Positions 13,609 to 38,675 of a DNA stretch of 64,000 nucleotides are shown one piece after another. The stretch spans positions 4,739 to 68,738 of the forward strand of contig JAYTHU010000031.1 in NCBI GenBank assembly GCA_043732305.1. The letters are read 5' to 3'. The stretch comes from Oligoflexia bacterium. GTDB taxonomy: Bacteria; Bdellovibrionota; Bdellovibrionia; JABDDW01. Position 1 is the stretch's first letter. Each line of letters starts with the position of its first letter. A program made the position numbers and the translations under genes. The notes beneath the pieces are model-generated. The model saw only the letters and a list, made by a program, of their open reading frames with translations, was not told the origin of the DNA and made no database searches.

Positions 13609-13609
13609 T

Positions 13610-17551: not shown

Positions 17552-17554
17552 GAT

Positions 17555-18658
17555 TTAAATCTTATGGGGCGCAAAGTATATTTCTCCCAGGACTCGGTCA
17601 TGAGCAGCTTTTCTTTGTCTCAACTTATATTCTCCGTGCGCGGAAGTACCAGAAAGATTTTGAACGTAGGTTTGATAATCCATGATTTGAATTTCGTAGG
17701 GATAGAAAAACCGAATCACGCCGTTGCTAGTTTTAACTTTGACCAAACTTCGGGAAATAAATTTAATCGCTTTGTAATGAATGTCGGAGAATGGATTATA
17801 CTTTTCTTTATATTCCGCCCGTTTAGAATCCTGGTTTAATGCTTCCAACATGATTTTATCGATCTCGTCGGAATCTAAATTCTTTTTCTCGGCGCCTAAT
17901 TTCTCAATCACTTCCATAAAAATATTTGTCGGGAATAAAGTATTTTTTGATTGGTGAGGAACCACATTGGCAAAGCTGACTAGGTTTTCTCTCCGTAAAA
18001 AACGTATCACGCGAAAAGCATCAAAAACAGTGGCGGTGATAAATCTCACTCCCATTTTATCAAAAATATCCATGGCCACACTTTCAGGCTTGCTGAGAGT
18101 TTTAATCACCATGCTGTGCATTTCTTTAAATGCTTTGACTTCGAATTTCATCAATGGAATTTGCTCAGAACTTTGCTCGGTCCCCAAGAATAACTTCCCG
18201 TTGTCATCACCGGAGACTTTAGATTGAATGGGACTAAAAATCTGATTTTGAATCTCGCTGGTGTAATTAAAAAAAAGATCATTCTCAACGTGAGCCACAC
18301 AGTGCATGACTCGAAGAATCGCACAGCTCCAAAGCTGCATTGGATTCTTGTCATGATCCCGGGTACTGGCGTATAAAAAAAGCCGCCGAATGTCTTTTAC
18401 CGCAGCGCGAGTTGCCAAAACTTCCGGAACTCGCTCATGAGAATCTAAAATATACTTATGCAATATATGGATAGCCTGTTCATACATTTGCCAAACAGTT
18501 TCATCTTCTTCTTTGATAGAGATATCATAACCGTAGGTTTTTAAAAATTCGCCGCCTTCTTCCAGAGACCTGAAGTCAAGCCTCGGCACGTCGATGGTGG
18601 AATAACCACCAATGATTGTTTTGATCATTTGGCTTGGAAAATCGAAATTACTGATCAT
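17555..18658 (-). CDS. RelA/SpoT-synthetase-domain protein (stand-alone nucleotidyltransferase, no HD hydrolase)
   Basis: GVRFITATVFDAFRVIRFL and YPYEIQIMDYQ...SAHGEYK match the RSH synthetase motifs (G.R.I...YRV / EVQIRT...AAHWRYK). The ~230-aa N-terminal region is unassigned. Confidence 0.5.
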   Translation of the reverse strand: MISNFDFPSQMIKTIIGGYSTIDVPRLDFRSLEEGGEFLKTYGYDISIKEEDETVWQMYEQAIHILHKYILDSHERVPEVLATRAAVKDIRRLFLYASTRDHDKNPMQLWSCAILRVMHCVAHVENDLFFNYTSEIQNQIFSPIQSKVSGDDNGKLFLGTEQSSEQIPLMKFEVKAFKEMHSMVIKTLSKPESVAMDIFDKMGVRFITATVFDAFRVIRFLRRENLVSFANVVPHQSKNTLFPTNIFMEVIEKLGAEKKNLDSDEIDKIMLEALNQDSKRAEYKEKYNPFSDIHYKAIKFISRSLVKVKTSNGVIRFFYPYEIQIMDYQTYVQNLSGTSAHGEYKLRQRKAAHDRVLGEIYFAPHKI

Positions 18659-18680
18659 GATGATTTTAACTTAGCGAATA

Positions 18681-18719
18681 AAAAGACCTTTGCCAAATTT
18701 TATTTGGTAAAGGTCTTTT
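18681..18719 (-). terminator. intrinsic terminator-like hairpin downstream of lipoprotein gene
   Basis: aaaagacctttgccaaa / tttggtaaaggtctttt is a 17-bp stem with one mismatch. On the minus-strand RNA it is followed by UUUUAUUCG. Confidence 0.6.
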
Positions 18720-18739
18720 AGATAAAGCTTAATATTTCT

Positions 18740-19570
18740 TTATTGACATCTAAAAAATGCGCAGGCGTTTCCGCTAAATTGTCCAAGAGTTCCTGAAGCC
18801 ACACTGGTTTGACCATTGATGGTGTTGACAGAAGTTTGATTGGTAAACCCAATGGTTCCGCTCAAAGTGTAGTTCACTCCGGATCCTGATAAAGTTCCTA
18901 TGACGGTGATTGTTCCTTCGCCATCGCTGAACACTAAATTAACTTTATTTCCCTGCACATAAGAACCTTGAGTCTGCAATCCAACATTGACAGGAATTGC
19001 AGGAACCACACCACCGCTAGGATCAGCAGTTCCGGTCAATGAATCCCAGAAGCCCATAGTAATACCACCGCTTGAAGGAGCCACTTGCTGATTAGACGCG
19101 ACAACAGCAGAGAGTGTCTGATTGCTAGTGAAAACCATTGGCGCAGAGCTAGATCCACTAGGATTTGTGCCCATGGTCATTCCCACAACGCAATTTGAAC
19201 CGTTGCAAGGAATCTGAGTGTAGCTTGCGGGTGTTCCAAAAATTGCAGAATTCCAATTGGTGTCCGTCGTTGTTGATGTGGCGCCAATAGCACCCCACGC
19301 CCAGTCAGTGCTCAAGAAATAGCGGGAGACGTCGTTGCTGTTCATACTTAAGCCAGGAGCCATGCCAGAGGTGACCTGACCCGAACTGGTGTTCACTTGC
19401 GCCCATATAGAACTGCTCACTCCACTGGGAGCGGCTGGGACACTGACGCCACCACGGATGTTATTACCGTTGGTGCGACTGGTTGAATTTTTGTCTTTAT
19501 TGTTGCTACCGCAGGCCGTGAATAGGAGCGTTGCTGCAACCGATAATGCTACTAATAAATTGTTTCTCAT
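18740..19570 (-). CDS. Ser/Thr/Gly-rich lipoprotein, hypothetical
   Basis: MRNNLLVALSVAATLLFTAC lipobox, then low-complexity S/T/G/N-rich sequence. Start chosen at the second Met of the ORF. Confidence 0.55.
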   Translation of the reverse strand: MRNNLLVALSVAATLLFTACGSNNKDKNSTSRTNGNNIRGGVSVPAAPSGVSSSIWAQVNTSSGQVTSGMAPGLSMNSNDVSRYFLSTDWAWGAIGATSTTTDTNWNSAIFGTPASYTQIPCNGSNCVVGMTMGTNPSGSSSAPMVFTSNQTLSAVVASNQQVAPSSGGITMGFWDSLTGTADPSGGVVPAIPVNVGLQTQGSYVQGNKVNLVFSDGEGTITVIGTLSGSGVNYTLSGTIGFTNQTSVNTINGQTSVASGTLGQFSGNACAFFRCQ

Positions 19571-19749
19571 AAATCTCCACTTTGAAAATAGGTCCATCCG
19601 TATTCTCTCAAGTTTATGTATTACAAGGGTTGGGCCATGGTTTTGGTCCTAGGGAATGACAGGTTGACTATAGGATTGATTGTCAGGAGTGCAGTTCGAA
19701 TAGGCCTTGAGTCGTCAGACAACTGTCTAATTTTTAGCCAAGTCGGTTT

Positions 19750-21591
19750 TTACCGAGGTGCCAGTAATGACTCGATCCTATTCACGGTGAATTTCTCCAG
19801 CCCCGGTTTGTCTTGCCATTTCTTGTCTGCAAGAATCTCGATGATTATCTCTCGTGCTTGGTTCTTAGTGAGATTTGGTCCACTCCCAAACGACACTTGT
19901 GTCAGCATTTTAAACAGAATAATTTGAGCTAAAGAAAACTTCAAATTCTTTGAAGAATCATGGGGTGCAAAAAATACGGTTGGAGCAGCGTGAATTTGAA
20001 AAGAATAATTCTCTTTTTGAACCACCAACGTTAGCTCATCCAAATAAGATATCATCTCCCTCAACACCGCGACGGGAATCCTCTTATTTTCAAGGTAACT
20101 ATCTAATAGTTCAAGTCTGGCAGCTGGACTGACCGGTAATTTCAAAACCTCCATCATTCTATCGAAATGAATTTGTTCTTCCGAACCCATTTTAAATCGA
20201 GGACGAGGTCTCTTATTGGAAACCTGTTGTAGGATTTTCTCAACGGCGAACATTTCTAACTTAGGAACATTCGACCATTTTTTAGTGTTAAAAAGTTTGC
20301 GGGCTATTTCCTGGGCCTCTTCCTTTGACAACGCTCCGTGCGCTCCGGGGATCAAACGCTTCAGCATCTTAAACAAAATCACATCACTATACCCAAATTT
20401 AGAATTGGAACGGGAATGGGGACTTTTGATTGAATAGAATATTGATTCTGGAAACGCAATAGACTGCATAGCTTCATTATCCTTGGCAATTGAGTCTTTA
20501 TTCAAAACAGGAATCATTTTCATAAACACCATGACCGGCACGCTCGTAGATTCGACATAACTTTCCAAAACCCCGAGAACACTTTCTAGACTTGCGGGGG
20601 ATTCCAAAAGAAAAAGCATGTGATCATAAATTTTTTGGTCCTCGGGGTCCAATTGAGACGAGCGTGGTCCATCTATGCCATTCTCACTGTCCATCAAAAA
20701 ATCGAGATCGATACCTTGTCGAGACGCCGAGATAACCGATTTCATAATTTCAATATCGCTGACTCCGTCGGCCAGTTCCTTGACCTCACTGACTTTCCCG
20801 ATAATTGGCGAAAGAGCGTCGATCATCATCACGACCTGCATTTGGAGAGCTTTTAGTTTCTGTATCTCTTTAGTGAAAGTCGCGACAAAAACATTTTCGC
20901 CCATTGAATTTTGAGTTGCTACCTCCAGAACGCTTTTTCGTTCGGCAATCGTGCTCTGTGTGACCCGAAGCAAAATGTATTCTTCATTCAATTGGCGAGA
21001 TATTTCCGGAAATTCAATTTTACACAGGGCAATACTTTGCTTGCAGCCTTTAATTTTATTAGCAATCTCGGTAACGGAAACTTTATAATTCTTGCTCAGC
21101 CCAAGAAAATGGCTCACCGAAGATGGCTTACCGACTGTTAGTTTTTTCTGAAGCTCCGTAGTCAAAGCGGAAACATTCTGCATCCCAAAAAATACGGTAC
21201 GAACCTTCTCCAAGCTTTCTTTATTTCGGTTCAAGGACAGGCCCGTCTGCTGCTTTGAAACTTCCAAAACCAAATCAAAAATCGGCTGATCCCAATCTTG
21301 CATAAATTCATTAGCCAGATACTGAGGATGAGAAAATCGAGAAGATTCGAGTTTGGACCTAAGACCTTCCACCAAAAAATGTGCAGCTTTCTGGATTTCA
21401 GAGTCATCCAGACTTTTTATCGTATGTTCGAACTCTGGCAAAGACGAACCGGACTTCAGAGTTTCAAGGATGGATGCGCACCTGTCCCCGAGAGACATTT
21501 CTTTTGGCGGCTGGGCACGGTGCCCTTCAATCTCAGAAGCCTCAACAAGGCCGGGGATTAAAAAGATAAAAACTAACATAAGAAACTTCAT
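19750..21591 (-). CDS. secreted protein, paralogue family member 1 (subgroup A)
   Basis: Signal peptide. Shares RC.S.LE.L, SRFSHPQYLA, C-x6-C (GCKQSIALCKIEF), NEEYILL and DLDFL blocks with 21598-22989 and 22986-24395. Confidence 0.6.
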   Translation of the reverse strand: MKFLMLVFIFLIPGLVEASEIEGHRAQPPKEMSLGDRCASILETLKSGSSLPEFEHTIKSLDDSEIQKAAHFLVEGLRSKLESSRFSHPQYLANEFMQDWDQPIFDLVLEVSKQQTGLSLNRNKESLEKVRTVFFGMQNVSALTTELQKKLTVGKPSSVSHFLGLSKNYKVSVTEIANKIKGCKQSIALCKIEFPEISRQLNEEYILLRVTQSTIAERKSVLEVATQNSMGENVFVATFTKEIQKLKALQMQVVMMIDALSPIIGKVSEVKELADGVSDIEIMKSVISASRQGIDLDFLMDSENGIDGPRSSQLDPEDQKIYDHMLFLLESPASLESVLGVLESYVESTSVPVMVFMKMIPVLNKDSIAKDNEAMQSIAFPESIFYSIKSPHSRSNSKFGYSDVILFKMLKRLIPGAHGALSKEEAQEIARKLFNTKKWSNVPKLEMFAVEKILQQVSNKRPRPRFKMGSEEQIHFDRMMEVLKLPVSPAARLELLDSYLENKRIPVAVLREMISYLDELTLVVQKENYSFQIHAAPTVFFAPHDSSKNLKFSLAQIILFKMLTQVSFGSGPNLTKNQAREIIIEILADKKWQDKPGLEKFTVNRIESLLAPR

Positions 21592-21597
21592 TTTTCC

Positions 21598-22989
21598 TTA
21601 CTCCGAAACCAAAGTGTGCAAATGACTGATCACGTATTTTTCCAGACCACCGTAATAAGACCACGTTGAATCGGTCAAAATTTCCCCGGCAATGACATGA
21701 GCATCCTCTTTAGATATTTTTCTCAAGTCGCTTTGAGTGACACGGCTTAATATTTTTGTAATGACAATGATTTTAAGCGGAAACTTCGAATTGACATTCA
21801 TGAAATTATGGGGAAGGAACTCGGTCGCCGGGTAAACTATTTTTTGGATAAACTGATCATCTCTCCAACTCGAATCATCAAATTTATAGATAATAGGTAC
21901 AATCTCTCTCAGCACATCAATAGAGATAGGAGTGCTATTTGCATAATCCTCGAGAATATTCAGAGCAATCCTGGAAGACGTCGGTGAGCTAAGAAGGTAA
22001 ATCATATGATCGAGGATTTGTCTATCACCGAGGCTGATTTTTACCAGACTTAAAGAAGGATTTAATTTAGAATCTCCTTCCACGAGAAAATCCAGATCCA
22101 ACCCTTGCGAAGAGGCACTGATCACTGATTTTACAATTTCACTCTCGTTCACGGCATCCGCCCGCTCTTTAATTTCCCGAACTTTTCCTAAGATCTGAGA
22201 AAGTCCACCAGTCATAGCGGAAACTTGCAACTGTTGAATCCCCAGCTTTTCTAGCTCTCGTTTGAAAGACTCAACTAAGATTTTCTCACTCGTCTGTTCC
22301 ATAGCCTCCCTTAAAATTCGTTCTCGCTCGACCATTAAACTGGAGGTAGCTTGCAGCAAAATATATTCTTCATTCAAATCTTGAACAATGGCGGAAAATT
22401 TAATTTTGCAAAGACCAATGGTTTTCCGGCACCCGCTAATTTTCTTAGCGAGTACCAAAACCTTAAGTTTATAGTCCGGTGATAACCAACGGCTGAGCTT
22501 GAAAACCGACGGCTTTCCCTCAGCTAAAATATTCTGTAACTTTCCCACAAGCAATCCGATGCTTTGGGTTCCATAAAGGGCGGCGTTGGCTCTCGCCATA
22601 CTTTCTTTATACCGAGAAACATCAAGACCGATTTTCTGCTTTGAAATCGCCAGTACAAGATCAAAAACTGACTGATTCCAGTTCGCGAGGACTTCACTGG
22701 CTAAATGCTGCGGATGAGAGAAACGTGAAGTGGAGATTTTTTCTTTTACTGCCATCACCAATTTTGAAGCTTCTTCCCGAAGAGTGGCTTCTCCTAAATC
22801 ACCCAATTTAGTTTCAAGTTCCAAAACTGTGGATCTATTTTCAAGCGCCTCTAGGACGCTGACGCAGCGAGTATGCAGATCAGAAGACTCCTGTGTTTTT
22901 TCTTCAGATAAAGATCCATGGAGTTCGGATGCCCTAGCGAAATTAGTCATACAAAAAATAAAAACTATAATAAATAATAAATATTTCAT
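21598..22989 (-). CDS. secreted protein, paralogue family member 2 (subgroup A)
   Basis: Signal peptide. SRFSHPQHLASE, GCRKTIGLCKIKF, NEEYILLQ and SVISASSQGLDLDFL are near-identical blocks to member 1. Confidence 0.6.
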   Translation of the reverse strand: MKYLLFIIVFIFCMTNFARASELHGSLSEEKTQESSDLHTRCVSVLEALENRSTVLELETKLGDLGEATLREEASKLVMAVKEKISTSRFSHPQHLASEVLANWNQSVFDLVLAISKQKIGLDVSRYKESMARANAALYGTQSIGLLVGKLQNILAEGKPSVFKLSRWLSPDYKLKVLVLAKKISGCRKTIGLCKIKFSAIVQDLNEEYILLQATSSLMVERERILREAMEQTSEKILVESFKRELEKLGIQQLQVSAMTGGLSQILGKVREIKERADAVNESEIVKSVISASSQGLDLDFLVEGDSKLNPSLSLVKISLGDRQILDHMIYLLSSPTSSRIALNILEDYANSTPISIDVLREIVPIIYKFDDSSWRDDQFIQKIVYPATEFLPHNFMNVNSKFPLKIIVITKILSRVTQSDLRKISKEDAHVIAGEILTDSTWSYYGGLEKYVISHLHTLVSE

Positions 22990-24395
22990 TTTATAACTCC
23001 ACGCACAGAGGCAATTCCCGAGTTCTGAAGAGCAACTTTTCGGAGGCCACAGCCAGACTTCAAGGCAAAAAACTCCCCGTTCGAATACAACTGGGTCTCA
23101 AGCTTTTTATAAAGCTCCAGATGCCCGTCTGAAGTGAGACTCATTTTTTTCGCCATCTGGCTGAGAGTTTTTGCGGAGAGCGTTTCACCTTGAAACAAAA
23201 TCAATTTTTTTGATGCCATGTAAGGAATGACAAATTTCAAATAATACTTATAGTTTTGGGAACCGTCGAAAACTCTTCTCACCTTATAAATTTCTTGTTG
23301 TGGGGCGGATTTTGCATAGATAAATATTGATCCCGTGAAAGGTTTAACCGCTTTGAGAAGAAACAAAAGGCTTTCGAGAGAAATGAATTTCATTACTTCA
23401 ATCTCTGCGAGAATCATGTCTCCTATTTCATCGTTAGAAAGTTCCGAATGAATAGCGCGCGCCACCTTCAATTTGAACTGCTCCTGTTGATCCAAATCCG
23501 TGTCTGTACGACTCGGAGACAAAGTCACGTCGTTTTCACCGATTAAAAATCCTAAATCAAAACCTTGAGATGCCGCTTCCATCACCGTTTTATGAGTAGA
23601 TCCTGTTTGAAAAATATCAGCCTGAGACATGACGTGGGAGATCTTGTCGATGGTCTCAGCCAGCTTTTCAGTTTTAATTTGCAATAAAGTTTTCTGCATG
23701 CCAAGCCTTTCGAGCTCAGTCTCAAGAATCCTTAAAAGCCCTGGGTGAGAAGTTATTTTCTTGGCCGCGACAAGAATCTTCATCTCATCAGAAAATGTCA
23801 TTTTTACGGCGTTGAGAAAAATCAGATCGGAATTGATTTGCTTTGATATGGAAGGCAAATCCAGTTGGCATTGGGCGAGAGATTTTTTACACAGGGCCGC
23901 TTTGCGGGCTAGGTCTTTGATTTTATTTGAATGGGTGCTTTTCAACATCAAAAATCTCCGCCCGCGGGAAATGGCCTTCTGAAGTTCATCAAGAACTATG
24001 GTCACATTCCTTGATCCGTAAAGGAGATTTTTCGCATTGGTCAGAGCCGGAGCTTCAAGCAGTTGCCCCGCCCCAAGATAACGTTTAGAAATAGAATTCA
24101 GAAGTTCATTCAAGTCCGAGTGATTTTCGGCCATACCCTCGCGCAAGACGTGCACTGGCTGGGAAAGGGAATGATCCGTCAGACTTTTTTCTAAGTGAGA
24201 AATGAGATCTCGACTCTCCGCTCCAATCTTCTCGTCGCTCAACGGATGAAATTCTTTTTCCAAATCGTGATTTCTATTTTGGCTCAGATTTTCAAGTAAG
24301 AGTCCACAGCGAAGAGAAAGATCACCGGCATTTAAAAACGGAGAGAATAGAAAGACTAGTTCTAGAAAAAGTAGACCTATAATTTTCGATCTCAT
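22986..24395 (-). CDS. secreted protein, paralogue family member 3 (subgroup A, diverged)
   Basis: Signal peptide. LRCGLLLENL, C-x6-C (LCKKSLAQCQLDL), EAASQGFDLGFL. 4-nt overlaps with both neighbours. Confidence 0.55.
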   Translation of the reverse strand: MRSKIIGLLFLELVFLFSPFLNAGDLSLRCGLLLENLSQNRNHDLEKEFHPLSDEKIGAESRDLISHLEKSLTDHSLSQPVHVLREGMAENHSDLNELLNSISKRYLGAGQLLEAPALTNAKNLLYGSRNVTIVLDELQKAISRGRRFLMLKSTHSNKIKDLARKAALCKKSLAQCQLDLPSISKQINSDLIFLNAVKMTFSDEMKILVAAKKITSHPGLLRILETELERLGMQKTLLQIKTEKLAETIDKISHVMSQADIFQTGSTHKTVMEAASQGFDLGFLIGENDVTLSPSRTDTDLDQQEQFKLKVARAIHSELSNDEIGDMILAEIEVMKFISLESLLFLLKAVKPFTGSIFIYAKSAPQQEIYKVRRVFDGSQNYKYYLKFVIPYMASKKLILFQGETLSAKTLSQMAKKMSLTSDGHLELYKKLETQLYSNGEFFALKSGCGLRKVALQNSGIASVRGVIK

Positions 24396-26248
24396 TCCGT
24401 CCTCAAAATGGCTTCGCTTACAAGCTGATCCACAACTTCACTTATCTTTGCGTCTCGCTCTGGATCAAGATGAACCCCTCTAGAAAGAGCTGTTCTTTCT
24501 ATCACTTTCTTAAGATTTTCCCTCGCTGTAGTTTCAAATTCAGAAATGTTATCTTGCCCAAGGATTTGAACATGGCGCAAACCCACTACCGCAAAAAATA
24601 TACTCGCATTGAATGCCTGTTTTTCGTGACTCATTCCTATCGCATTATAAATACTGTCAGGAATTTGCGCGTATGTGTCCACCCAATTCACAGATTGGTT
24701 CTTGCGAGAAAAAAGAAGCGTCGACAGAGAAAGGTACTGCGCAATGGTGATGCGACGATTTTCCTTGAACAAATGAGTCCAAATTCTCGAGGCAATACGG
24801 CTTGCAGAAATCTGACTCAGATAGGTTGTTTCCATTTCTTTTTTAATTCCCACGAGATAATCAGAAACACCTAAATCAACCAAAGGCTCAAGCAGTCCTC
24901 GAAGTGACTGATTCAATGCGAGGCCCAATTTGTCATTTTTATGATGGGACAAAACATAACCGATGAACTTTGGAATTTTCGATGCGAAAACAGGATCTTC
25001 AAAAAGAAGGTTGAATCCCTGAAAGAGAACTCTTTGATCCGTGTTTTCGAGAAGATTAGTGGCCATTGTGCCGAATAAATGACTAGCCAAAAGTTCATCA
25101 TCTTCACTGTTGGCAGCAAACTTTTCCACTCTAAGCATGGTTTCAGCAACCAAACGTGTATCTAACCACTTCACAGAAAGAAGAGCAGTGAGTTGTAAAA
25201 AATCTGCATTTTCCTGGAGCTTTTCCACTGCATGACCATAAGCTGCAGATGTGAGGGGCAATGATTTTAAAAGATTCCATGACTCTTCTTTTATACCCCA
25301 AATACTTACACTTTTTTGTTCGCGCCTATGCCACTCCATTTTCCATTCGATAGGCTCCACGTCATCTTCTCGCGGCACTAGAAGAGGCTGGAGATCCACG
25401 GGCACTTTCAGTGATTGGGCTTTGATAATCAAACGGTGGCTAAACTCAACCCTGGATTCCCGAGCGTTACTGCCCACTTGATCGGCGGTAATAATTATTT
25501 TTTCTAAAGTCTCACTCATAATCAAAAAATAGGACTCAAGCTTAGCTATCTCTAGCCTTTTGTTATTTAGCGCCGTTATCACGGAACTTTGAGGGAAAGT
25601 AGATGGCAACCAGTCAGATAGATTTTCCAAAAGGAGATCTAAAATTTTAACTTGATCTTGCAGTAACGACTCCACATTTTTGACCGTCGCGAACTCCTGA
25701 TTGAGATTTTCAATAATTGTTTTAAGCTCTTTTGAACAATGGTTGATCGATACCCGACACTCTCTCACTCGAGCGACTTGTTTGAGAAGTTCCTGCTTTT
25801 TTTTCTCGATGTTGAATCGAGCGCGACCGTATTGATCGATCCTTACATCTAAACTATTCAAAAGTTTCTGTTCGCTGTCCACACCAAAGAGAAGCGTTTC
25901 TAATTCTTCTAACTTTTTAGGCTTAGAGTTTGTGTTTTGAGAAACTTGTCTTTGGCTCACTGCTCGTACCATTTCTAAAAGAGGTTCAAAATGATCTTGA
26001 AGCCGAGTTTGAATTTGAAAATACGGACTAGAGAATTTTTCTTTTTCTAATGCAAAAACTAAATCCTTCACTAATTTTTCATAGACTTGTTTCTGGTCCA
26101 CAGGTTGGGATGCCTTGAATTCCAAAACTTTTTCAAGCTCAAGGATACATGGTTGTGCATTGATAAAGGTGGGAGAAGAAGTAACTGCTGAAAAAGCGTT
26201 GCCACCTAGAAAAAAAACGGGAAACACTAAAGATAAAAACACTTTCAT
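24392..26248 (-). CDS. secreted protein, paralogue family member 4 (subgroup B)
   Basis: Signal peptide. FSSPYFQIQ, LEELETLLFG, C-x6-C (ECRVSINHCSKEL), NQEF and WLP blocks shared with 26248-28161 and 30205-32106. Confidence 0.6.
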   Translation of the reverse strand: MKVFLSLVFPVFFLGGNAFSAVTSSPTFINAQPCILELEKVLEFKASQPVDQKQVYEKLVKDLVFALEKEKFSSPYFQIQTRLQDHFEPLLEMVRAVSQRQVSQNTNSKPKKLEELETLLFGVDSEQKLLNSLDVRIDQYGRARFNIEKKKQELLKQVARVRECRVSINHCSKELKTIIENLNQEFATVKNVESLLQDQVKILDLLLENLSDWLPSTFPQSSVITALNNKRLEIAKLESYFLIMSETLEKIIITADQVGSNARESRVEFSHRLIIKAQSLKVPVDLQPLLVPREDDVEPIEWKMEWHRREQKSVSIWGIKEESWNLLKSLPLTSAAYGHAVEKLQENADFLQLTALLSVKWLDTRLVAETMLRVEKFAANSEDDELLASHLFGTMATNLLENTDQRVLFQGFNLLFEDPVFASKIPKFIGYVLSHHKNDKLGLALNQSLRGLLEPLVDLGVSDYLVGIKKEMETTYLSQISASRIASRIWTHLFKENRRITIAQYLSLSTLLFSRKNQSVNWVDTYAQIPDSIYNAIGMSHEKQAFNASIFFAVVGLRHVQILGQDNISEFETTARENLKKVIERTALSRGVHLDPERDAKISEVVDQLVSEAILRTE

Positions 26249-28161
26249 TAATTTAACTGCCCCACCGTTCTATTCAGGAGATTGTCTATGTATTTTTCGA
26301 CTCCCAGCTGATAGGATTGACTGGATCTCTTGTGACCGGGCATATGCTGAAGCACGATTCTCAACAGACGAGCATGCGCACGCTTTCTAAAATTAGGAAT
26401 ATTATCCATGCTCAGAATTTGAATCTTACTCAGTGCTTTTACGGCAAAAAATATTATTGGATTGAGCCTGACGTAACCATCCCCTTGGAATGGCCCATAA
26501 AATTCTTTGGGTAGAACTTTAAGTTCATCGTTGCTCCAACCTCCCGGACAGAGATCCCAGACAGAGGTTGCTCCGTGATTTACCGATACTTCTAAAAGTT
26601 TGAAATAATCTTCTGCAACCAAACGAGTCTTAGGATCGTTCAAATAATCCCACATCAGCTTGACTTCAAGATCTCGCGAGTCAGTGCCTTCTCCCGCAAG
26701 CTCGCCCATCCTCTGCATAAAATTAAAATCAACCATCACCGTGGGTCCCAGCATGAGGGCTTGTGTGATAATCAGGCGGGCTCGATCCGCGGTGCCCACT
26801 GGGTGCAGTTCACCCAGGAAAAGTGGAATCTGCCCGAGGACATCTCCCTGGAAAAGCCCACTGAACCGGCTGTGAATCCAATCATTCTCCATACGGTGAT
26901 TGAGACGTGACATAAGAAAGTCCACGGCAAGTTTTCCTCGAGCCTTAAATATCACGTCTTTGGATTTGAGAAAGCCTTCGATTGCACGAACAATCTGCAG
27001 AAGGTCAGGTGCTCCGCCAATGTTTAAGGAAAATAATTCTATTTTCCTCATGAGACTTTCCGTCTGACCTAATTCATCAGCCAATATTTTAAATTGCCGG
27101 CTGTTTAAGGGAAGCTTCAATAAAACCTGCCACGAAGGGTATTTATCATCCCAAACAGCACTCTCCATGTTGTCTTCGCTAGCGGCTATGTTCGCTGGCT
27201 TGTCGGGTCCCGGTAAAAACTGGTCTAAATTTATATTTATATCCCAATAAGTTGATTTCAGTTCATCCCGCTCTTTCAAGATAAAATTGAGATCAATGGC
27301 CGGTGACTCCGAACCAGCGCGGATGATAGCCCTTTGAATCCCTTCTATTTGGGTTGAGCCTGCGTGGCTTGCGGACTGATCTGCTCCGATCATGATTTTT
27401 TCAATGGCGTCAGCCATCAATGTGAAATAACTCACCGATTGACCGAGCTCTTGAATCTTATTTGAAATAGCTTTCTTGACAGAATCACTTCCCGATTTCA
27501 CAGGCAACCAGTCATTGGTATTCGAGAGGACAAGTTCGAGAATTTTCGTTTCATCTTCCAAAACACTGAGCACGGTTTTTACAATTTTATATTCGGCGTT
27601 CATTTCTGAAAGCAGAACGGTCACATCAGTAGTGCATTTCTTAATGGCAGCACGGCATGCTTTCAATTTGTTCCCGGCATCTACAACCGCTCTTACCCTA
27701 TCGGCTATTTTCTCGCCCGTTGTTTTGAATGAAATCAGCCCCCCCTTCCGCTTAGCACTGAGGGTATTATTTAATTGCTCGAGTAATTTCAACTCCGTGT
27801 TTGTTCCAAAAAGAAGGGTTTCCAATTCTTCCAGAGCCTTGGGCTTTGTCGTCGAACTATTAGAAATTTGTCGGAGACTCACTTCCAGCGCAAGTTCAAT
27901 GATGGGTTTTAGATATTCGCTCAAACTATTTTGAATGACAAAATAACTACTGGAAAAAAAATCACTTTTGAGAGCCGCTTCGAGCTGCTTTTGTAAAATA
28001 GAATATCTAATCTCGATCGACTCACCATTGTTTTTGACGATGCTTTCAAGAGACGCTTTGCATGGGGGCCGGCTGAGCTCGGCACTTTTAGCGCAGGAAA
28101 TCCAAAGGCACCCTGCCAGAAATGCCATTGCCAAAATAAAAGGCTTTTTGTCCCCGCTCAA
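26248..28161 (-). CDS. lipoprotein, paralogue family member 5 (subgroup B)
   Basis: LAGC lipobox. FFSSSYFVIQ, LEELETLLFG, ACRAAIKKCTTDV, NAEY, NDWLP. TAATG stop/start overlap with member 4. Confidence 0.6.
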   Translation of the reverse strand: MSGDKKPFILAMAFLAGCLWISCAKSAELSRPPCKASLESIVKNNGESIEIRYSILQKQLEAALKSDFFSSSYFVIQNSLSEYLKPIIELALEVSLRQISNSSTTKPKALEELETLLFGTNTELKLLEQLNNTLSAKRKGGLISFKTTGEKIADRVRAVVDAGNKLKACRAAIKKCTTDVTVLLSEMNAEYKIVKTVLSVLEDETKILELVLSNTNDWLPVKSGSDSVKKAISNKIQELGQSVSYFTLMADAIEKIMIGADQSASHAGSTQIEGIQRAIIRAGSESPAIDLNFILKERDELKSTYWDININLDQFLPGPDKPANIAASEDNMESAVWDDKYPSWQVLLKLPLNSRQFKILADELGQTESLMRKIELFSLNIGGAPDLLQIVRAIEGFLKSKDVIFKARGKLAVDFLMSRLNHRMENDWIHSRFSGLFQGDVLGQIPLFLGELHPVGTADRARLIITQALMLGPTVMVDFNFMQRMGELAGEGTDSRDLEVKLMWDYLNDPKTRLVAEDYFKLLEVSVNHGATSVWDLCPGGWSNDELKVLPKEFYGPFQGDGYVRLNPIIFFAVKALSKIQILSMDNIPNFRKRAHARLLRIVLQHMPGHKRSSQSYQLGVEKYIDNLLNRTVGQLN

Positions 28162-28178
28162 TTCTTCCCACCCTGATC

Positions 28179-30092
28179 TTATAATTTAGTTTTTGCTATA
28201 TTTTCGAGCTCTGAAGTGCAGTCCGCTCCATCCATGGTTCCGCCCACACTACGACTCACTAAATTTTGAGCTTCAATGGCCGCAGAATTGAGACGGCCCA
28301 TCGCGATAAAACTCTTACTTGCTTCTATTTCCATGCGGGCTTTTTCAGAGATAATAAAGTCGGCCGTTTCCTTGATTGTCTCGGCGCTGAAGTATGCCGT
28401 GGTATTGATCTCAATGATCATGTCATTGGCGCGCGCGACTTCAACTCGCAATTGTTTCAAACCTGCCTCTTGAGTGGCTCGCACCGCTTTGTTTGTACCT
28501 ACGGCCATTTCTAAAGTGGAGTTGGTGTTTTTGATCATTTCCAAGGTGGTAAAAATAGGCATGCCATTTCTCACGTTAGCGATGTCTTCTCTTACAAAAT
28601 AAATAGTGTCTAGCTGTTTGGCCATAGCTTCACCTATGAGTTCCATAGCTGAGGCCTGACTCAAACCCGCATTGAGACGGTTTCTGAGCTTCTGGCCCAC
28701 ATATGAAATCACGGCTTTCTCATCTTCAAAACGTCCATTGAGATGAAATTCTTCAACGACTCTGGCGATTTCATCGTCGACGAGTTTCCCGAGAGCTACT
28801 TTCATTTTCAAATCTTGGAGGTATCCAGACATCTCATGAAGAGTCGTGATGATTTGCACGCCACTTTCCTTCAATGTTTTAGAGTTGCTCAGCAATACAT
28901 TGTCGACACTCGTGATGCCTTGGCGGTGACTCAACAGTGCCAAACGATCTTTCTTAGGTTTAACGGCGGAAGTCAATTTTCGTTTCACGTAGCCTGGATT
29001 AGGAGCTGCCGAAAGTTTTCCATGCCATCGTTCACGTATCGTGGATTTCCCCACTTCATGCCCCATGCTCTGAAGAAGGTAAGACAAGTCCTTGATGTTT
29101 TGAAGAGATTTTAATTGGGTGTCGTTGATAGCAATATATTGTTTCGAGTTGCGATCTAAAATCTTATTGTTATTCAAGAAGCGTGTGGCCTGCTCGGAAG
29201 AAGCACTCAACTCACTTTCTAACGTTTGCATATTTTCTTGGCGGATTTGCGTTCGCCCCTCGGGAGATAATGTTTTTTCAATAAGTTCTAGAGCCAGCTC
29301 CTTAGCTTTTTTAGTGAGAGCGTCTGCGGAAACTCTGCTCATACGAACTTCAAGAGGCTTGGTTTCGCCCTCACCATTTTTATAATCACCAAGCAAGATT
29401 GTTCGAGTTTGATTTCGAGCGTAGAAAATTTCATCCACGCCATCACGTCTGCGAGAAGCGGCGTCTATCTCCTCGATTTCAAAAAGAATGCCGTCTCCGT
29501 TGGACAAAATATCTTTCGCATACTTCAAGAGACTAGCAGCAGGAATTTGCTGAGTGAGTCCTTGCCGAAGCACATCAAAATACATTTTTAAATTTACTAG
29601 AGAATCCGCATTTAATTTTCCCGGAGCAGTGGTCGTCACTAAAGTCACGAGATCTCTTAAACTGGGATCAGATGTCAATTGAGAGATATCAAAGGAACCA
29701 AGAGTCGCCAGAATCTCAAGTCTGATTTGGTTGACGTCAATGACTTTTGAATCTTTGGTTTCTTGAGCCACAATTGTTTGCAGGGCGGTGCTTACTGCAG
29801 GAAGTTTGTCACCAATCACGGCGATGGAAGATATCGCTTCGGGACTAAGTTTGTATTGAGTTTTTCCACTCTTAAATCTTTCTTGCAGCCGTCGAGTGAT
29901 TTCCGCAATCATGCTAGTTTGCACTACCTCAGTTTGCATTGCCTCCAATTGCCCGTGTTTATAGCTTGGCAGCTGAGTTGTAGTCACCTGACCGCCGGCA
30001 AAAGCAAGACTGCTCACCAATAAAAGGCTCAATGATTTTCCAAGAAGTTTGAGAAAAAAATTATTCTTTTGCATACTAGAAATCCCCTCCAT
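28179..30092 (-). CDS. secreted alpha-helical protein, first gene of the operon, not a family member
   Basis: 637-aa ORF with signal peptide (LLLVSSLAFAGGQ). No shared blocks with the paralogue family. No recognised domain. Confidence 0.5.
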   Translation of the reverse strand: MEGISSMQKNNFFLKLLGKSLSLLLVSSLAFAGGQVTTTQLPSYKHGQLEAMQTEVVQTSMIAEITRRLQERFKSGKTQYKLSPEAISSIAVIGDKLPAVSTALQTIVAQETKDSKVIDVNQIRLEILATLGSFDISQLTSDPSLRDLVTLVTTTAPGKLNADSLVNLKMYFDVLRQGLTQQIPAASLLKYAKDILSNGDGILFEIEEIDAASRRRDGVDEIFYARNQTRTILLGDYKNGEGETKPLEVRMSRVSADALTKKAKELALELIEKTLSPEGRTQIRQENMQTLESELSASSEQATRFLNNNKILDRNSKQYIAINDTQLKSLQNIKDLSYLLQSMGHEVGKSTIRERWHGKLSAAPNPGYVKRKLTSAVKPKKDRLALLSHRQGITSVDNVLLSNSKTLKESGVQIITTLHEMSGYLQDLKMKVALGKLVDDEIARVVEEFHLNGRFEDEKAVISYVGQKLRNRLNAGLSQASAMELIGEAMAKQLDTIYFVREDIANVRNGMPIFTTLEMIKNTNSTLEMAVGTNKAVRATQEAGLKQLRVEVARANDMIIEINTTAYFSAETIKETADFIISEKARMEIEASKSFIAMGRLNSAAIEAQNLVSRSVGGTMDGADCTSELENIAKTKL

Positions 30093-30204
30093 AAAAGTAC
30101 TTCATCCATCTTAACGCAATGCGTAAATAAATTTAAATTGTTTCTGCTAACCGCCACACTGCAATTTCTAAGCCCACGGAACGCAACTTGCAGTTGTTAA
30201 TTTT

Positions 30205-32106
30205 ATGACCTTATTTTTTTTAAACACAGGCGGGTTCAATGATCATCGCCGTGGAAAAAGAACTCGACCCTACCCGAAAAGCGGGAATTTTTTTCAGGAG
30301 AAAAAAAGCGGAGCCATTCTATTCGTTTTACTAACTTCGCTATGTTCGTTTCTCGTAACTGGTGCAAGTCAGGCTCAAGAAGTCACCTCATTAACCATCA
30401 GTGATGCCTGTCAGGCTATCTTGAAAACCCTAAAGGCAACGTCCAACCCGCATGAAAAAGACTCCGTCAATTACACTCCTATCAATGATCAGCAAATCGT
30501 GGATGGAGGAAAATCAATATCCAGCGTGCTTGCTGCCGCCCTGAGGGAAGATTTTCTCTCAAGTCCCAAATACATCATGCACGAACATCTCACAGAATTT
30601 TTGGAACCTGCCATGGATTTGGCTAGAGAAGTGAGCGCAAGGCAATTGGTCGGCCAAACCAGAGAAAAACCAAAAAGCATTCTAGAGATAGAAACTCATC
30701 TTTATGGAAATAAAAGTTTAACGGCGAAGATTGAGGAAGCTGAACTGGCTCTCGACAAGCTTCAGAAAAAAAGTATTTTTCGCAAAAAAGCGACAGAGGA
30801 GGTATTTAAAATTGCGAATGAAATTTTATCCTGTCGCACTGCCATTCAATCTTGCAAGCTTGATATCAAAGGGACTCTCATTCAACTGAACCACGAGTAC
30901 CGCCTGTCCCATGCTGTTGAACTTATTTTGACCGATCACTTAAAAATCCTCGAGAATCTTCAAGGACGTCACACCGAAACATCAATTCAGACAGTGATAG
31001 AAATTAAAAAAGCGGAGTTGAATAGACTGCTGGCGATTTTCAAAGCGGTTTCTACGCAGATTGAATCAGTCATTGAAGTCGGACATACCGTGGTGAAAGA
31101 TGCGGACCAGCTTTCATCCGATAGAATTTCGCAACTCGTGATCAATGCCGCCAAGCAAAGTCCTTCCTTAGATTTGACGTATCTAAATCCGGAGACTGAA
31201 GAAGAAGTACAAGAAAAACTTGATCCCGGAGTGATCTTCAAAGATCCCGCGACGGCGGCTCTGCAAAAACTGATTGACCTCACAACTTCCGATATAGGCA
31301 TACGCGAAACCCTATTGAATAAAATTTATCCTCAGATCTACACACCCTCTGGATACTCTTGGATGGTGAGGTACAAAACCCGGAAAGCCCTTGATCGAAT
31401 AAAAAATCAAATTAACATTGGCGGTAAAATCAACATCTACCTTCTTCCATCAGTGATGGAGATTCTTGTGGAATCTTTGGAAACTCTTGATGAGCCAGCA
31501 CTTTTTGCGATCTTGTTAGACCCGGACATTGACCTGCCTGGGTCTCTGCCACAGCTTTTTTCAGCAATCACTCAGCACCCTAAGGCAAAGAAAATACAAA
31601 ACATTTTGCCCAGTTTTTTAGCCGGCAAAACCAGTTGGACAAGGAGCCGTGATTTTAGTGATCAGGTGACGGAGATTTCGAATTACTCCATCGGAGATCG
31701 GTCAAAACTTGATTCACTGGAGATTCTCATACGTAAATCGACGACCATATCACAAGACGAGTTTCTGCTTTTGGCAGCGAAAACTCCTTCTAACGTTCCC
31801 TGGGGCCTCCCAACCGATGTTTACCTTAAAGGAAAACTCACCGCCTATGGTTTCGCGAAGCGAGATCTGATGGCAATACACATCAAGATAGAATTTAATA
31901 TCATTTTTGATGCTCTCGAAAAAGTCTCAATCAGAGATATTGAGTCAAAACAAAATTGGGAAAGGAAGGTCATTGGAATACTCACCACCCGGTTAAGGGC
32001 AGCCTATCCAGATGACAATTTTCCTAAAGAGGTGACGTTGGTTACGGCTTTGGACAATTTGCTCTTGAGAGCCATGCAATATTCCAGCAAAAGGTGTTAC
32101 GAGTGA
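30205..32106 (+). CDS. secreted protein, paralogue family member 6 (subgroup B-like), divergently transcribed
   Basis: DACQAILKTL, FLSSPKYIMHE, LEIETHLYG, SCRTAIQSCKLDI, NHEY, SLDLTYL. The real start is probably downstream of the annotated Met, at the signal peptide ...AILFVLLTSLCSFLVTGASQAQ. Confidence 0.55.
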   Translation: MTLFFLNTGGFNDHRRGKRTRPYPKSGNFFQEKKSGAILFVLLTSLCSFLVTGASQAQEVTSLTISDACQAILKTLKATSNPHEKDSVNYTPINDQQIVDGGKSISSVLAAALREDFLSSPKYIMHEHLTEFLEPAMDLAREVSARQLVGQTREKPKSILEIETHLYGNKSLTAKIEEAELALDKLQKKSIFRKKATEEVFKIANEILSCRTAIQSCKLDIKGTLIQLNHEYRLSHAVELILTDHLKILENLQGRHTETSIQTVIEIKKAELNRLLAIFKAVSTQIESVIEVGHTVVKDADQLSSDRISQLVINAAKQSPSLDLTYLNPETEEEVQEKLDPGVIFKDPATAALQKLIDLTTSDIGIRETLLNKIYPQIYTPSGYSWMVRYKTRKALDRIKNQINIGGKINIYLLPSVMEILVESLETLDEPALFAILLDPDIDLPGSLPQLFSAITQHPKAKKIQNILPSFLAGKTSWTRSRDFSDQVTEISNYSIGDRSKLDSLEILIRKSTTISQDEFLLLAAKTPSNVPWGLPTDVYLKGKLTAYGFAKRDLMAIHIKIEFNIIFDALEKVSIRDIESKQNWERKVIGILTTRLRAAYPDDNFPKEVTLVTALDNLLLRAMQYSSKRCYE

Positions 32107-35045
32107 AACCGAAATTTTCTGCTTCCACATTTCTAATTTTCGATTTTTTAATCTTCGCAACTCTTTTAAGCTTCGGCTTATGTTCAAGCTTAGGCTTTGG
32201 CGCCGAGCTTTTACGTTTCCCTTTCCAAGACGGAAGAAAAATTCTGGTGACTCAGGGTGATTCGGGCGTTCACGTTTCTTATGTCAGAAAAATAGATTCT
32301 TCGAATACAATCAGCAGCGCAGGCAAAGAAGTGGAAATAGAATTTCTCACTTTGCCAGAGCTAACGGGTTTTTCAGTCTTTAATAATTCCGACGTTTCAA
32401 ATCACATTCCGAAAGAAATCAAAGCTTATAAAGTTGTTCAATCCAAAAAGTCGAACTTTGAGTTTAAAAACTGGTTGATCCTATCGGATAAAACCCATGG
32501 CTATTTTATACGGCAACATAGTTTTTCTGGAAATAGCAAAATCCCTCTGGTGGTTTTTAAATTCAAAATGCCAAGCGACGTCAAAATGATTTCATCAAGT
32601 TATGGGATGGGACCGGAAGGATCGCGATTTCTATATTTTATTTCTGTCGATGGAAAAACAGCCAAAACTATGGTTTTTAGTCCAGAAGAGGGAGACCAAC
32701 CACTCAAATTAATTCCTCAATTTGTAGATCTTGGAAATATTCAGGAGCCGGTTTTCCAAATTGTTGGCGATGAAATCGTTTGGAAAGAACGATATCTGAA
32801 AAAATATAATTTCGACCTTCCTGAAATCAAAGACATTAAAACAGGGAATTCAAAAAACAATCCCATGGGTGATATTGAGAATTCTCAGGCGAATTTGCAA
32901 AACACCGCCCGCATGGCTCATGAAGCTGCCACGGAATTATCCAAACCTGCGAACCAAAGAATGAAATCCGCAGAACGGACCCAGAATTTCAATCATTCTC
33001 TTGCCACACCTGATGCTGATGTTGAATACAAAGGCCTTCATTACAAAATTGAAGAGTCACTTGAAGGAGTCGAAATTGTCAGGCTCAAAGATCTTAAAAG
33101 CCTCACTGTAAGCAAAGGAAGCTATAACTCAACTCATATTTTAGATGGCGGAATACTGAAATTTTCGGATATCTCTCGAGAAATATCTCTAGATCACTTT
33201 GATGCCGAATGTGCCTTCATGCCCACTGGAAACAATCCCCAAGAAGTAAAGTTCATGGAAGGAACTTATGAAAACTTTAGAAAGACCGGATCAATAAATC
33301 TCGTTCTTCCTGATTCGCGAAAAGAACTGGTCAGACAGGCGGTAAAACGCATGCTCGGTGAAAAGAAAAACAGCCTGCTTCTGACTGAAGGTTTTGGAGA
33401 TCGAAAGTTCATTGTTCAAAATATAGTTCAGGCCTTGCCACCCACCTGGCGCGTGCTTACGCTTTCACCGGGACCACTCTCTAAAGACATCAACTACTCG
33501 GGAAAAATTCAGGAAAACGTTTCCCATATTTTGGAAGCGGCAAAGACGACGCCTCTGGTTTTGGTGGCCGAAGACTTTCATATCTACAAAGGTTTGGGAT
33601 CTACTGGTGGCAATCAAACTGATGTGCTTGAACTGATCCGTGATGCGGTCTTGAGTGGCCAACTGCGGTTGATTGCACTCTCCGGAGAGGAATTTAACGA
33701 GCGTGTTCATGATCCTGCTTGGGACCGAGCCCTTTTTAAAATTCCCCTTACTGATTTGAGTCAGGTAGAAGTTTTTGAATTCTTAAAAAATCTTTGGGCG
33801 GTAGATGGAAAAGGACTTCCACTTCCGAGCGCCAAAACTCTAAATAAAATAATCGATGTTGCGGGGAAATTCAATGTGACTGAAGAAGACCCCGCCCGCT
33901 CCGCCGATTTCATGGCTGCATACATTTCAGAATTGAGCGAGACAACGTCTCCATCCATCGACGTGAACGATGAAGTTTCTCTTTTGAAATCAGCTAAAGA
34001 TTTCTATCGACTAGATCCTTCACTGATTGATCCAAAAATTTTATTCTCTAAAGTTCAGAACTTTATTCCTAAGGTTCGCGATTACGGTCTCATGGGGCAT
34101 GATCATGTGATTGCAGCGGCAAAAAAAATGATTGCAAACTCCCTTTCTGGCGCATCACTTGATCCCGGGCCTGGATTTATTATGTACGTGGATGGTCCAC
34201 CCGGCGTTGGAAAAACCGAAATGGCTAAGAGTTTTGCTTCGGCCATGGATTGGAACATCAAAAGAATTGTCATGCACCAGGCAATGACCTCAGACACTCT
34301 GCTTGAAAATCTTTATCGCGCACTGAAAAAAAATCCACACTCTCTGATTTTTCTCGACGAGATAGAAAAAGCATCTCCCGACACTCTCAAGGGACTTCTT
34401 CAAACCATGGACAATGAGTACTTCAACGTGGATATGGAGATTGGCGACAAACAAAAACGCACGGTGCGCGCGTCTACTAAACATGCGAAGTTTATGCTCG
34501 CTGGAAATGTACTGGGCGAAGCAATCTCCCATTGGTGGCATGATCATCCGGAATATATTAACTCTCTCACACCACCTCATATGCAATTCATAAAGGACAT
34601 GGGCGGCGAAGAACGTTTGCGGCAACTATTGATTCAAGAAGGTCTTCCGTCCCCGCTCATTGATAGGGCCTACGTGACTTATGCTTTTCCGCCGACACGA
34701 GAACAGATAAAAGGTTTCCTCACTTTTAAGATCAACCTGATGATAAAAATATTTGAAAAAAACAATGATCGAAAATTAGTCTTCACTGGTCTTGAAAAAT
34801 ACATTGAAGATGTGACTGATTTTGCTATTCGGGAAAAGCTTGGACCAAGATCCATTTTGCGCGCCACCACGGGCTCTAATGGAGATTTCGCAAGCATTCT
34901 GGCAAACCTTGCAAGCACGTACGCTGCGGCACCGGGGAGTCATGACGGGCCGGTGAAGCTTCGATTCGATGAAAAAAGAACGGATCCCACCCACGACTGC
35001 CAAAATATTTTGGCAGAAATGGAAAATGAGATCCGAGAAAACTAA
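32094..35045 (+). CDS. Clp/Hsp100-like double AAA+ protein with degenerate D1, intact D2 and novel membrane-anchored N-terminal region
   Basis: D1-like segment aligns with ClpB but has GFGDRK for Walker A GVGKT and AEDFH for Walker B DELH. D2 has GPPGVGKTEMAK, LIFLDEIEKA and a sensor-1-like MLAGN (AAA_2 type). The N-terminal 40 aa are hydrophobic and a ~400-aa unique domain follows. 13-nt overlap with the preceding paralogue. Confidence 0.65.
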   Translation: MLRVKPKFSASTFLIFDFLIFATLLSFGLCSSLGFGAELLRFPFQDGRKILVTQGDSGVHVSYVRKIDSSNTISSAGKEVEIEFLTLPELTGFSVFNNSDVSNHIPKEIKAYKVVQSKKSNFEFKNWLILSDKTHGYFIRQHSFSGNSKIPLVVFKFKMPSDVKMISSSYGMGPEGSRFLYFISVDGKTAKTMVFSPEEGDQPLKLIPQFVDLGNIQEPVFQIVGDEIVWKERYLKKYNFDLPEIKDIKTGNSKNNPMGDIENSQANLQNTARMAHEAATELSKPANQRMKSAERTQNFNHSLATPDADVEYKGLHYKIEESLEGVEIVRLKDLKSLTVSKGSYNSTHILDGGILKFSDISREISLDHFDAECAFMPTGNNPQEVKFMEGTYENFRKTGSINLVLPDSRKELVRQAVKRMLGEKKNSLLLTEGFGDRKFIVQNIVQALPPTWRVLTLSPGPLSKDINYSGKIQENVSHILEAAKTTPLVLVAEDFHIYKGLGSTGGNQTDVLELIRDAVLSGQLRLIALSGEEFNERVHDPAWDRALFKIPLTDLSQVEVFEFLKNLWAVDGKGLPLPSAKTLNKIIDVAGKFNVTEEDPARSADFMAAYISELSETTSPSIDVNDEVSLLKSAKDFYRLDPSLIDPKILFSKVQNFIPKVRDYGLMGHDHVIAAAKKMIANSLSGASLDPGPGFIMYVDGPPGVGKTEMAKSFASAMDWNIKRIVMHQAMTSDTLLENLYRALKKNPHSLIFLDEIEKASPDTLKGLLQTMDNEYFNVDMEIGDKQKRTVRASTKHAKFMLAGNVLGEAISHWWHDHPEYINSLTPPHMQFIKDMGGEERLRQLLIQEGLPSPLIDRAYVTYAFPPTREQIKGFLTFKINLMIKIFEKNNDRKLVFTGLEKYIEDVTDFAIREKLGPRSILRATTGSNGDFASILANLASTYAAAPGSHDGPVKLRFDEKRTDPTHDCQNILAEMENEIREN

Positions 35046-35053
35046 ACCTTAAA

Positions 35054-37192: not shown

Positions 37193-37214
37193 CTTGATCG
37201 TGGTTTTAAATTTA

Positions 37215-38558: not shown

Positions 38559-38675
38559 CTGGGTCCTCTCAGGTAAAGGTGCAACTCAAAAGTAGCATTG
38601 ACACCCCGACCCCCACAAGTCTAATCTCTGCCTAATCTCTGGCCTAATCTTTGGTCACTATAAACAGGAGAATCC

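Follow-up and report, generated by a model that had tools for sequence, protein, structure and literature searches.

A 64,000-nucleotide (nt) stretch of DNA from an uncultured Oligoflexia bacterium of the Bdellovibrionota (contig JAYTHU010000031.1, positions 4,739 to 68,738), referred to here as the window, encodes six proteins, M1 to M6, that by the database searches described below form a very rare and previously undescribed orphan family. The explanation that we favor, tentatively and with somewhat less than even confidence, is that these are Sec-exported modular proteins in which a cysteine-stapled helical scaffold carries exchanged C-terminal domains, with a role at the cell envelope or surface.

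An earlier note on this DNA, made from its letters and translated open reading frames (ORFs), had described six paralogues, and all six ORFs were found where that note had placed them, M1–M5 on the minus strand and M6 on the plus strand:

M1, 19750–21591 (−): 613 amino acids (aa); signal peptide, N-domain (20674–21591) and two C-terminal domain copies of ~150 aa each (20197–20661 and 19753–20196); early Cys codon 21478–21480, C-x6-C 21022–21045 (−)
M2, 21598–22989 (−): 463 aa; signal peptide, N-domain (22057–22989) and one C-terminal domain of the M1 type; early Cys codon 22864–22866, C-x6-C 22408–22431 (−)
M3, 22986–24395 (−): 469 aa; N-domain (23490–24395) and its own C-terminal type; early Cys codon 24306–24308, C-x6-C 23868–23891 (−)
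M4, 24392–26248 (−): 618 aa; N-domain (25355–26248) and a ~320-aa C-terminal domain common to M5 only; early Cys codon 26147–26149, C-x6-C 25736–25759 (−)
M5, 26248–28161 (−): 637 aa; N-domain (27256–28161) and a C-terminal domain of the M4 type; early Cys codon 28060–28062, C-x6-C 27634–27657 (−)
M6, 30205–32106 (+): 633 aa; N-domain (30205–31212), with a long charged stretch preceding the hydrophobic signal segment, and its own C-terminal type; early Cys codon 30409–30411, C-x6-C 30832–30855 (+)

All-versus-all BLASTP links every pair of M1–M6 over the N-terminal ~300 aa, with expect values (E) from 1e-105 (M1/M2) to 3e-6 (M2/M4); when all 71 window ORFs that reach 120 aa were compared, the same program found no further family member. 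MAFFT alignments of the six N-domains are colinear, and thirteen columns are invariant in all six (C38, L42, S87, S112, G136, C183, C190, N202, L222, A274, A289, D295 and L296; numbering for conserved columns is that of M1). The earlier note had proposed a common linear order of motifs, while allowing that the correspondence might be non-colinear and over-read from low-complexity helix. Because the aligned columns coincide with the claimed blocks, in the claimed order, the motifs were not over-read and the correspondence is real; the C-x6-C strings quoted in the note also agree exactly with the translations. Judged by these alignments, M1–M6 are true paralogues sharing one N-terminal domain.

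Several particulars need amendment. All three cysteines are conserved as described, but the early one lies 7–22 aa from the likely signal cleavage site rather than 15–25 aa beyond it. The N(E/Q/A/H)E(Y/F) block that follows C-x6-C is present except in M3, which reads NSDL, and the D-L of the acidic block is invariant, although M4 (DLQPL) and M5 (DLNFI) deviate from the pattern given for the residues that follow. Of the two proposed subgroups, the first (M1, M2 and M3) is recovered with 100% bootstrap in a neighbor-joining tree of the N-domain. In the second, M4 and M5 pair with equal support, but M6 joins them in just 50% of replicates; M1–M6 as a whole are monophyletic in 53%. M1 and M2 are indeed the closest pair, with 43% identity in the N-domain, but their duplication is not recent as had been supposed. 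Synonymous divergence is saturated (pS 0.80 for M1/M2, 0.74–0.80 across all pairs), so no duplication in the set is recent and that of M1/M2 is old. With saturation in every pair, the ratio of nonsynonymous to synonymous substitution rates (dN/dS) per branch, which the note had thought worth calculating, had no computable value. No DNA-level repeats are left between the paralogue genes.

The rarity of the family is apparent from an exhaustive search of 1.84 billion representative proteins with a hidden Markov model (HMM), which returned 13 proteins: M1–M6 and seven others (P0007–P0013), the latter from short metagenomic contigs and called "hypothetical protein" or left unnamed. None came from a Bdellovibrio genome. 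The count of 13 is an underestimate, since truncated genes at contig ends are missing from protein libraries. None of M1–M6 has a Pfam or NCBIfam match at E ≤0.1, PADLOC and PHROG gave no match to the family proteins of the window, and Pfam gave none to the metagenomic homologues. Compared with PDB sequences, the family profile found nothing below E 0.08, and the C-terminal domain of M4, the sole C-terminus tested in this way, found no match. A word-index homology search with M2 alone retrieved just M2, and with the alignment of all six it did not recover even the query proteins; a scan of a genome collection with M1 and a metagenome scan with P0008 and P0009 retrieved nothing.

The paralogues look exported. 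In every member hydropathy over 19-residue windows peaks in a signal-like segment at the N-terminus, and M1–M6 have no other strongly hydrophobic segment, the 19-residue maximum of the mature parts being ≤1.58. The signal region of M5 (28108–28161, −) holds a lipobox-like L-A-G-C. On this sequence M5 may be a lipoprotein, whereas M1–M4 and M6 have the appearance of ordinary secreted proteins.

Past the D-L block the sequences diverge completely, and BLASTP and HMM comparisons distinguish at least eight C-terminal types that are not detectably related. In the window, M1 (with two copies) and M2 share one type, M4 and M5 share a second, and M3 and M6 each have their own; among the homologues the types are those of P0010 and P0011 (P0013 weakly), P0007 and its upstream gene, P0008, and P0009. 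Close N-domains can be joined to unlike C-termini, as in P0008 and P0009, whose N-domains are 41% identical, and in M3, which falls within the M1/M2 clade. No known domain was found in the C-termini of the window proteins by Pfam, PHROG or PADLOC. The two C-terminal copies of M1 (19753–20661) stand in tandem, where M2 has one; they are ~28–32% identical to the M2 domain, and the internal duplication is therefore old.

The tandem arrangement of the genes also recurs. On the minus strand the order is o637 (an unrelated 637-aa ORF discussed below), M5, M4, M3, M2, M1, with overlaps of 1–4 nt or spacings of 6–17 nt; M3 overlaps both M2 and M4 by 4 nt. On an unrelated metagenomic contig (Logan SRR26871262, 1–3248), at least three family genes follow one another, each overlapping the next by 4 nt. 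On this contig P0007 has family genes on both sides, the downstream one matching the domain profile at E 2e-56 with all motifs, and two further contigs display the same overlapping layout. As read from these gene junctions, the minus-strand paralogue genes are translationally coupled in tandem, and likewise in a second organism.

Cysteine signature and predicted helical scaffold

Apart from the start Met, the two columns of the C-x6-C cysteines are the only ones that reach 90% conservation in the 13-sequence alignment. M1, M4 and the homologue P0007 (588 aa) contain exactly three cysteines, and extra cysteines elsewhere in the family lie mostly within signal peptides. In the mature proteins, 3 of 3,268 residues (0.09%) are non-motif cysteines, compared with 0.85% in 42 other genes of the window (binomial P = 3e-9). 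Purging of spare cysteines is expected of proteins that fold in an oxidizing compartment, and it implies that the three that remain are functionally meaningful. Of P0007–P0013, only P0010 is without C-x6-C: L and N stand in for its two cysteines, which were lost together, and the early Cys is kept; P0013 has no Cys at the aligned position of helix 1 and one Cys directly past its signal peptide. The alignment thus supports the three cysteines as a hallmark of the family.

Two AlphaFold models were obtained, one of the M1 N-domain (predicted local distance difference test score, pLDDT, 67) and one of full-length M2 built with 13 sequences (pLDDT 72). In both the N-domain is all-helical and includes two long helices, of 62 and 44 residues, with C183 and C190 inside the longer one. 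Column-wise hydropathy of the 13 sequences reveals an unbroken 3-4-3-4 hydrophobic stripe from −10 to +42 relative to the first of these cysteines; the best periodicity is 103–104 degrees, and the cysteines occupy successive core positions, 0 and +7. The early Cys heads a similar stripe, C-x-x-[hydrophobic]-L-x-x-[hydrophobic], on helix 1. Since the two long helices pair antiparallel, the C-x6-C segment would be next to the conserved VI-A-A--G-DL block, at the bundle end from which the C-terminal domain projects. At the far end, the tip of the hairpin is polar and variable in length, with insertions.

Foldseek searches of the PDB with both models, and of the viral BFVD set, returned generic or designed helical bundles only. 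The best scores were E 0.02–0.03, with template modeling (TM) scores ≤0.36, and none reached E 0.001. Viral syntaxin/t-SNARE and SNAP-like proteins were among the matches, but these were too weak (E 0.06–0.3, TM ≤0.3) and an analogy with SNARE/NSF was rejected.

The earlier note had envisaged a disulfide plus a free thiol, and had asked whether the C-x6-C cysteines lie within bonding distance. If they did bond each other, they would close a short loop or helix kink and leave the early Cys as a free thiol for catalysis, redox sensing or an intermolecular bond. P0010, which lost both partners together while retaining the early Cys, fits such a scheme, as does a slight dip in pLDDT at the motif in both models (73–84 in the blocks spanning 181–200, versus 85–94 further along the helix). 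Yet both models place the pair in one continuous helix, and the 13-sequence alignment has no conserved Gly or Pro between the cysteines; the intervening residues are Ala-rich, and a conserved I/V/L at +4 lets the heptad stripe run on to either side. A helix separates residues i and i+7 by ~10.5 Å, while a disulfide needs Cα atoms within about 7 Å, so that cysteines so placed on one helix should not bond each other. The mutual disulfide is therefore disfavored and we consider it unlikely. From the models, bonds to another helix or to another subunit appear more likely.

The scheme that we propose instead begins with proteins made up of a cleavable signal peptide, an elongated all-helical domain of ~270 residues and a C-terminal domain that would have been swapped repeatedly in evolution. 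The helical domain is probably the common scaffold, its cysteines lying at buried heptad positions, one on helix 1 and two on the 62-residue helix. These could form inter-helix disulfides that would not run from C183 to C190. One possibility is a bond from helix 1 to the long helix of the same chain, with one Cys to spare; the other would join the long helices of separate chains. Such links might lock the bundle, or might covalently join paralogues made from one translationally coupled operon. The outcome would be a stable extracytoplasmic assembly that shows different C-terminal domains. The disulfide pattern, the oligomerization and the biological role are all inferred. A place at the cell envelope or surface, where the assembly might interact with prey or the environment, is the most likely because the host is Bdellovibrio-like and the gene block is lineage-specific.

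Several points weigh against this explanation. Three is an odd count for a purely intramolecular disulfide scheme, and the paired loss in P0010 is equally expected if the two C-x6-C cysteines bond each other. P0013, the most divergent homologue, appears to be a single gene, and so hetero-oligomerization cannot be obligatory. The AlphaFold models are of moderate confidence, the spacing of the cysteines is taken from ideal helix geometry, and the signal peptides were assessed from hydropathy and by eye. Homology, as searched above, gives no functional clue for the family.

The gene block and its AAA+ ATPase

The six genes lie within a larger block that contains two other genes and is bounded by conserved ones:

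19598–35053: lineage-specific block of 15.4 kilobases (kb), between a fadB-like gene (35054–37282) and conserved lipoprotein, o367, plsC and SH3 genes
28179–30074 (−): o637, 637-aa ORF, first gene of the minus-strand operon
30075–30204: divergent intergenic region of 130 nt, between o637-M5-M4-M3-M2-M1 (−) and M6-AAA+ (+)
32103–35045 (+): orphan AAA+ ATPase gene, about 980 aa, GTG start at 32103

About 30 Bdellovibrionota loci keep the order thiolase, fadB, gap, (lipoprotein), o367, plsC, SH3 protein, hbd, and the fadB-like neighbor is 57–59% identical to Bdellovibrio and Pseudobdellovibrionaceae proteins. Identity at this level assigns the window to a divergent lineage within the Bdellovibrionales. 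The conserved order extends to hflX and maeB before the thiolase (15424–19597 and 35054–42211 of the window; loci L004–L066). The gap measures 0.7–1.5 kb in many metagenome-assembled genomes, 5–9 kb in Bdellovibrio species and 15.4 kb in the window. In two Bdellovibrio genomes that were examined it is occupied by genes for a POT transporter and a Met-zincin, and the locus closest to that of the window (L006) has different genes after fadB. The gap in the window contains the six paralogues, o637 and the AAA+ gene only, none of which occurs in the ~30 syntenic loci. The block has no associated tRNA or integrase signal and is not framed by repeats, and recent foreign acquisition is not supported, because its base composition and third-codon-position GC content (GC3) equal those of the flanks. 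On this comparison the block is long-resident and lineage-specific and occupies a variable slot.

Three observations concern the surroundings. The 367-aa protein o367 (17555–18658) is strongly conserved (E 1e-90) and has no Pfam family. Directly downstream of the lipoprotein gene (−) is a near-perfect 18-bp inverted repeat with a 3-nt loop (18681–18719), which is probably a terminator closing the minus-strand transcription unit. Farther away, among beta-oxidation genes, 10348–13740 (−) encodes a 1,130-aa fused protein of the IcmF type, resembling B12-binding, MeaB GTPase and methylmalonyl-CoA-mutase proteins, that belongs to ordinary metabolism.

The protein o637, annotated at 631 aa in public assemblies, is an exported orphan: its N-terminus is signal-like, and it has no Pfam, NCBIfam, PADLOC, PHROG or PDB-sequence match. 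Its single Cys, C625 of the 637-aa ORF, is within the last 13 residues, GADCTSELENIAKTKL (28179–28230, −). Profile–profile comparison indicates that neither o637 nor the N-terminal region of the AAA+ protein is a cryptic family member. The C-terminus of o637 resembles the helix-1 motif x-D-x-C-x-S-x-L-E-x-L; it is the best match of a helix-1 profile in the window outside the family, but at E ~1 the resemblance may be due to chance. By its sequence, this C-terminus could be a docking helix for the spare cysteine of a paralogue.

The AAA+ protein consists of a ~19-residue hydrophobic N-terminal segment, a unique region of ~440 aa and two AAA modules. Walker A is degenerate in the first module; the second has an intact GPPGVGKT (Walker A) and IFLDEIEKA (Walker B). 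The AAA_2, AAA_5 and AAA models match at E ~1e-11 and the ClpA model at 1.6e-18, though the latter falls far below its cut-off. The best relatives are ClpA-like, with 24% identity over one third of the length. No Clp_N match was obtained, and for the N-terminal 446 aa neither PDB nor Pfam yielded a relative. In an alignment to VAT/Cdc48, pore-loop 1 reads HQAMT in place of K-[YW]-x-G. The charges that flank the hydrophobic segment are compatible with export or with a cytoplasm-facing anchor.

It is conceivable, though the probability is low, that the paralogues are clients or partners of this ATPase, a proposal that is compatible with the scaffold explanation favored above. The ATPase might assemble and disassemble the bundles or, if it were membrane-anchored on the cytoplasmic side, might keep the paralogues unfolded for Sec export. 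The arrangement of the genes points in this direction: the AAA+ gene begins 4 nt ahead of the M6 stop, this pair and the minus-strand operon diverge from the same 130-nt region, and all belong to one lineage-specific block. Pattern scans for sigma-70, sigma-54 and terminator signals, including promoter scans of the divergent region, gave hits at chance level. The intact Walker A/B module is likewise in keeping with an active ATPase partner. On the other hand, no AAA+ gene is seen at any other family locus, all of them on short contigs, and replacement of the aromatic pore-loop-1 motif by HQAMT argues against substrate threading.

Less probable functions and known systems

Exported, elongated helical proteins encoded by tandem paralogues of one operon recall the multicomponent α-helical pore-forming toxins of the ClyA superfamily (XaxAB/YaxAB, AhlABC, SmhABC, Hbl, Nhe and MakABE), which are also helical bundles of ~300 aa from adjacent paralogous genes, and M1–M6 might by analogy permeabilize prey membranes. 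MakE, AhlB/C, XaxB, SmhB and MakA do appear among the weak Foldseek matches. Their scores (E 0.1–0.6, TM 0.10–0.21) are no better than those of designed helical bundles, however, so that neither sequence (Pfam included, at E ≤0.1) nor fold gives a significant match. The family has no hydrophobic head or β-tongue, as the low hydropathy of the mature parts attests, and the tip of its long hairpin is polar and variable in length; conversely, the large variable C-terminal domains and the three-Cys signature belong to the family and not to those toxins. We regard a pore-forming function as improbable.

A metal site, the other possibility raised in the earlier note, is very improbable: three conserved cysteines at buried helical positions could converge on a trigonal thiolate site that stores, senses or detoxifies Cu(I), Zn(II) or a thiophilic toxic metal outside the cytoplasm, and designed three-Cys helical bundles that bind such metals provide a precedent, but P0010 is without two of the three ligands, no conserved His or Met is nearby, thiolate sites are unusual in an oxidizing exported compartment, and the variable C-terminal domains and tandem arrays would be left unexplained. 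Just as speculative is the idea that the block encodes an extracytoplasmic machine, delivered into prey where ATP is available and composed of an exported Clp-like AAA+ protein and disulfide-linked helical proteins with differing C-termini. Behind this idea are the signal-like N-terminus of the AAA+ protein and its poverty in cysteine (3 in about 980 aa), which resembles that of its neighbors. If the AAA+ protein is indeed exported, this would be highly unusual among its bacterial counterparts; for a signal sequence preceding an AAA+ ATPase, the closest parallel would be the eukaryotic torsins of the endoplasmic reticulum lumen.

Predatory bacteria need exported proteins to recognize, enter and consume prey, and this repertoire is largely uncharacterized. 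If the cysteines cross-link paralogues, the family would furnish a simple case of covalent hetero-oligomers produced from a coupled gene array. Because it is so rare (~15 genes in roughly 15 billion proteins) and poorly sampled, it is of limited general importance as long as no function is found, and the present account should be read as a reliable description of an orphan family, not as proof of a new mechanism.

Comparison with known systems places these features in context. The twin CX3C/CX9C helical-hairpin proteins of the mitochondrial intermembrane space, such as Tim9/10 and Cox17, are small and have four cysteines, arranged as two pairs on two antiparallel helices, that bond to the neighboring helix. 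They resemble the family in having cysteines spaced along a single face of an amphipathic helix within an oxidizing compartment, but the family has one C-x6-C pair and a single Cys in a domain of ~270 residues, and the two are not homologous. The AAA+ protein shares Walker A and B with the Clp/Hsp100 unfoldases but lacks their aromatic pore-loop-1 motif and Clp_N domain. With polymorphic toxins the family has in common a constant N-terminal module, diverse C-terminal modules and clustered paralogues; it differs in that export relies on ordinary signal peptides rather than a secretion-system domain, and in that no known toxin domain occurs in the C-termini. Nor are there small immunity-like genes between members: the paralogue genes abut or overlap, which leaves no room for cognate immunity ORFs.

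A parallel from within the Bdellovibrionota is provided by the mosaic adhesive trimer (MAT) proteins of Bdellovibrio bacteriovorus, in which a β-rich N-domain of ~130 aa directly follows the signal peptide (PMC10769870). Their fibers are trimeric β-helices or prisms, some with an S74 chaperone-protease (PMC10769870). Like the MAT proteins (PMC10769870), the present family is multiparalogue and signal-peptide-bearing, joins a conserved domain placed directly after the signal peptide to swapped, variable C-termini, and occurs in predatory Bdellovibrionota. In contrast to that of the MAT proteins, the N-domain of the present family is ~270 aa long and all-helical, there is no sequence relationship between the two, as the exhaustive HMM search retrieved nothing from Bdellovibrio genomes, and the family genes are tandem and translationally coupled. 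The family thus adds an undescribed helical scaffold, with a clean cysteine signature, that follows a MAT-like logic of constant base and exchangeable tip.

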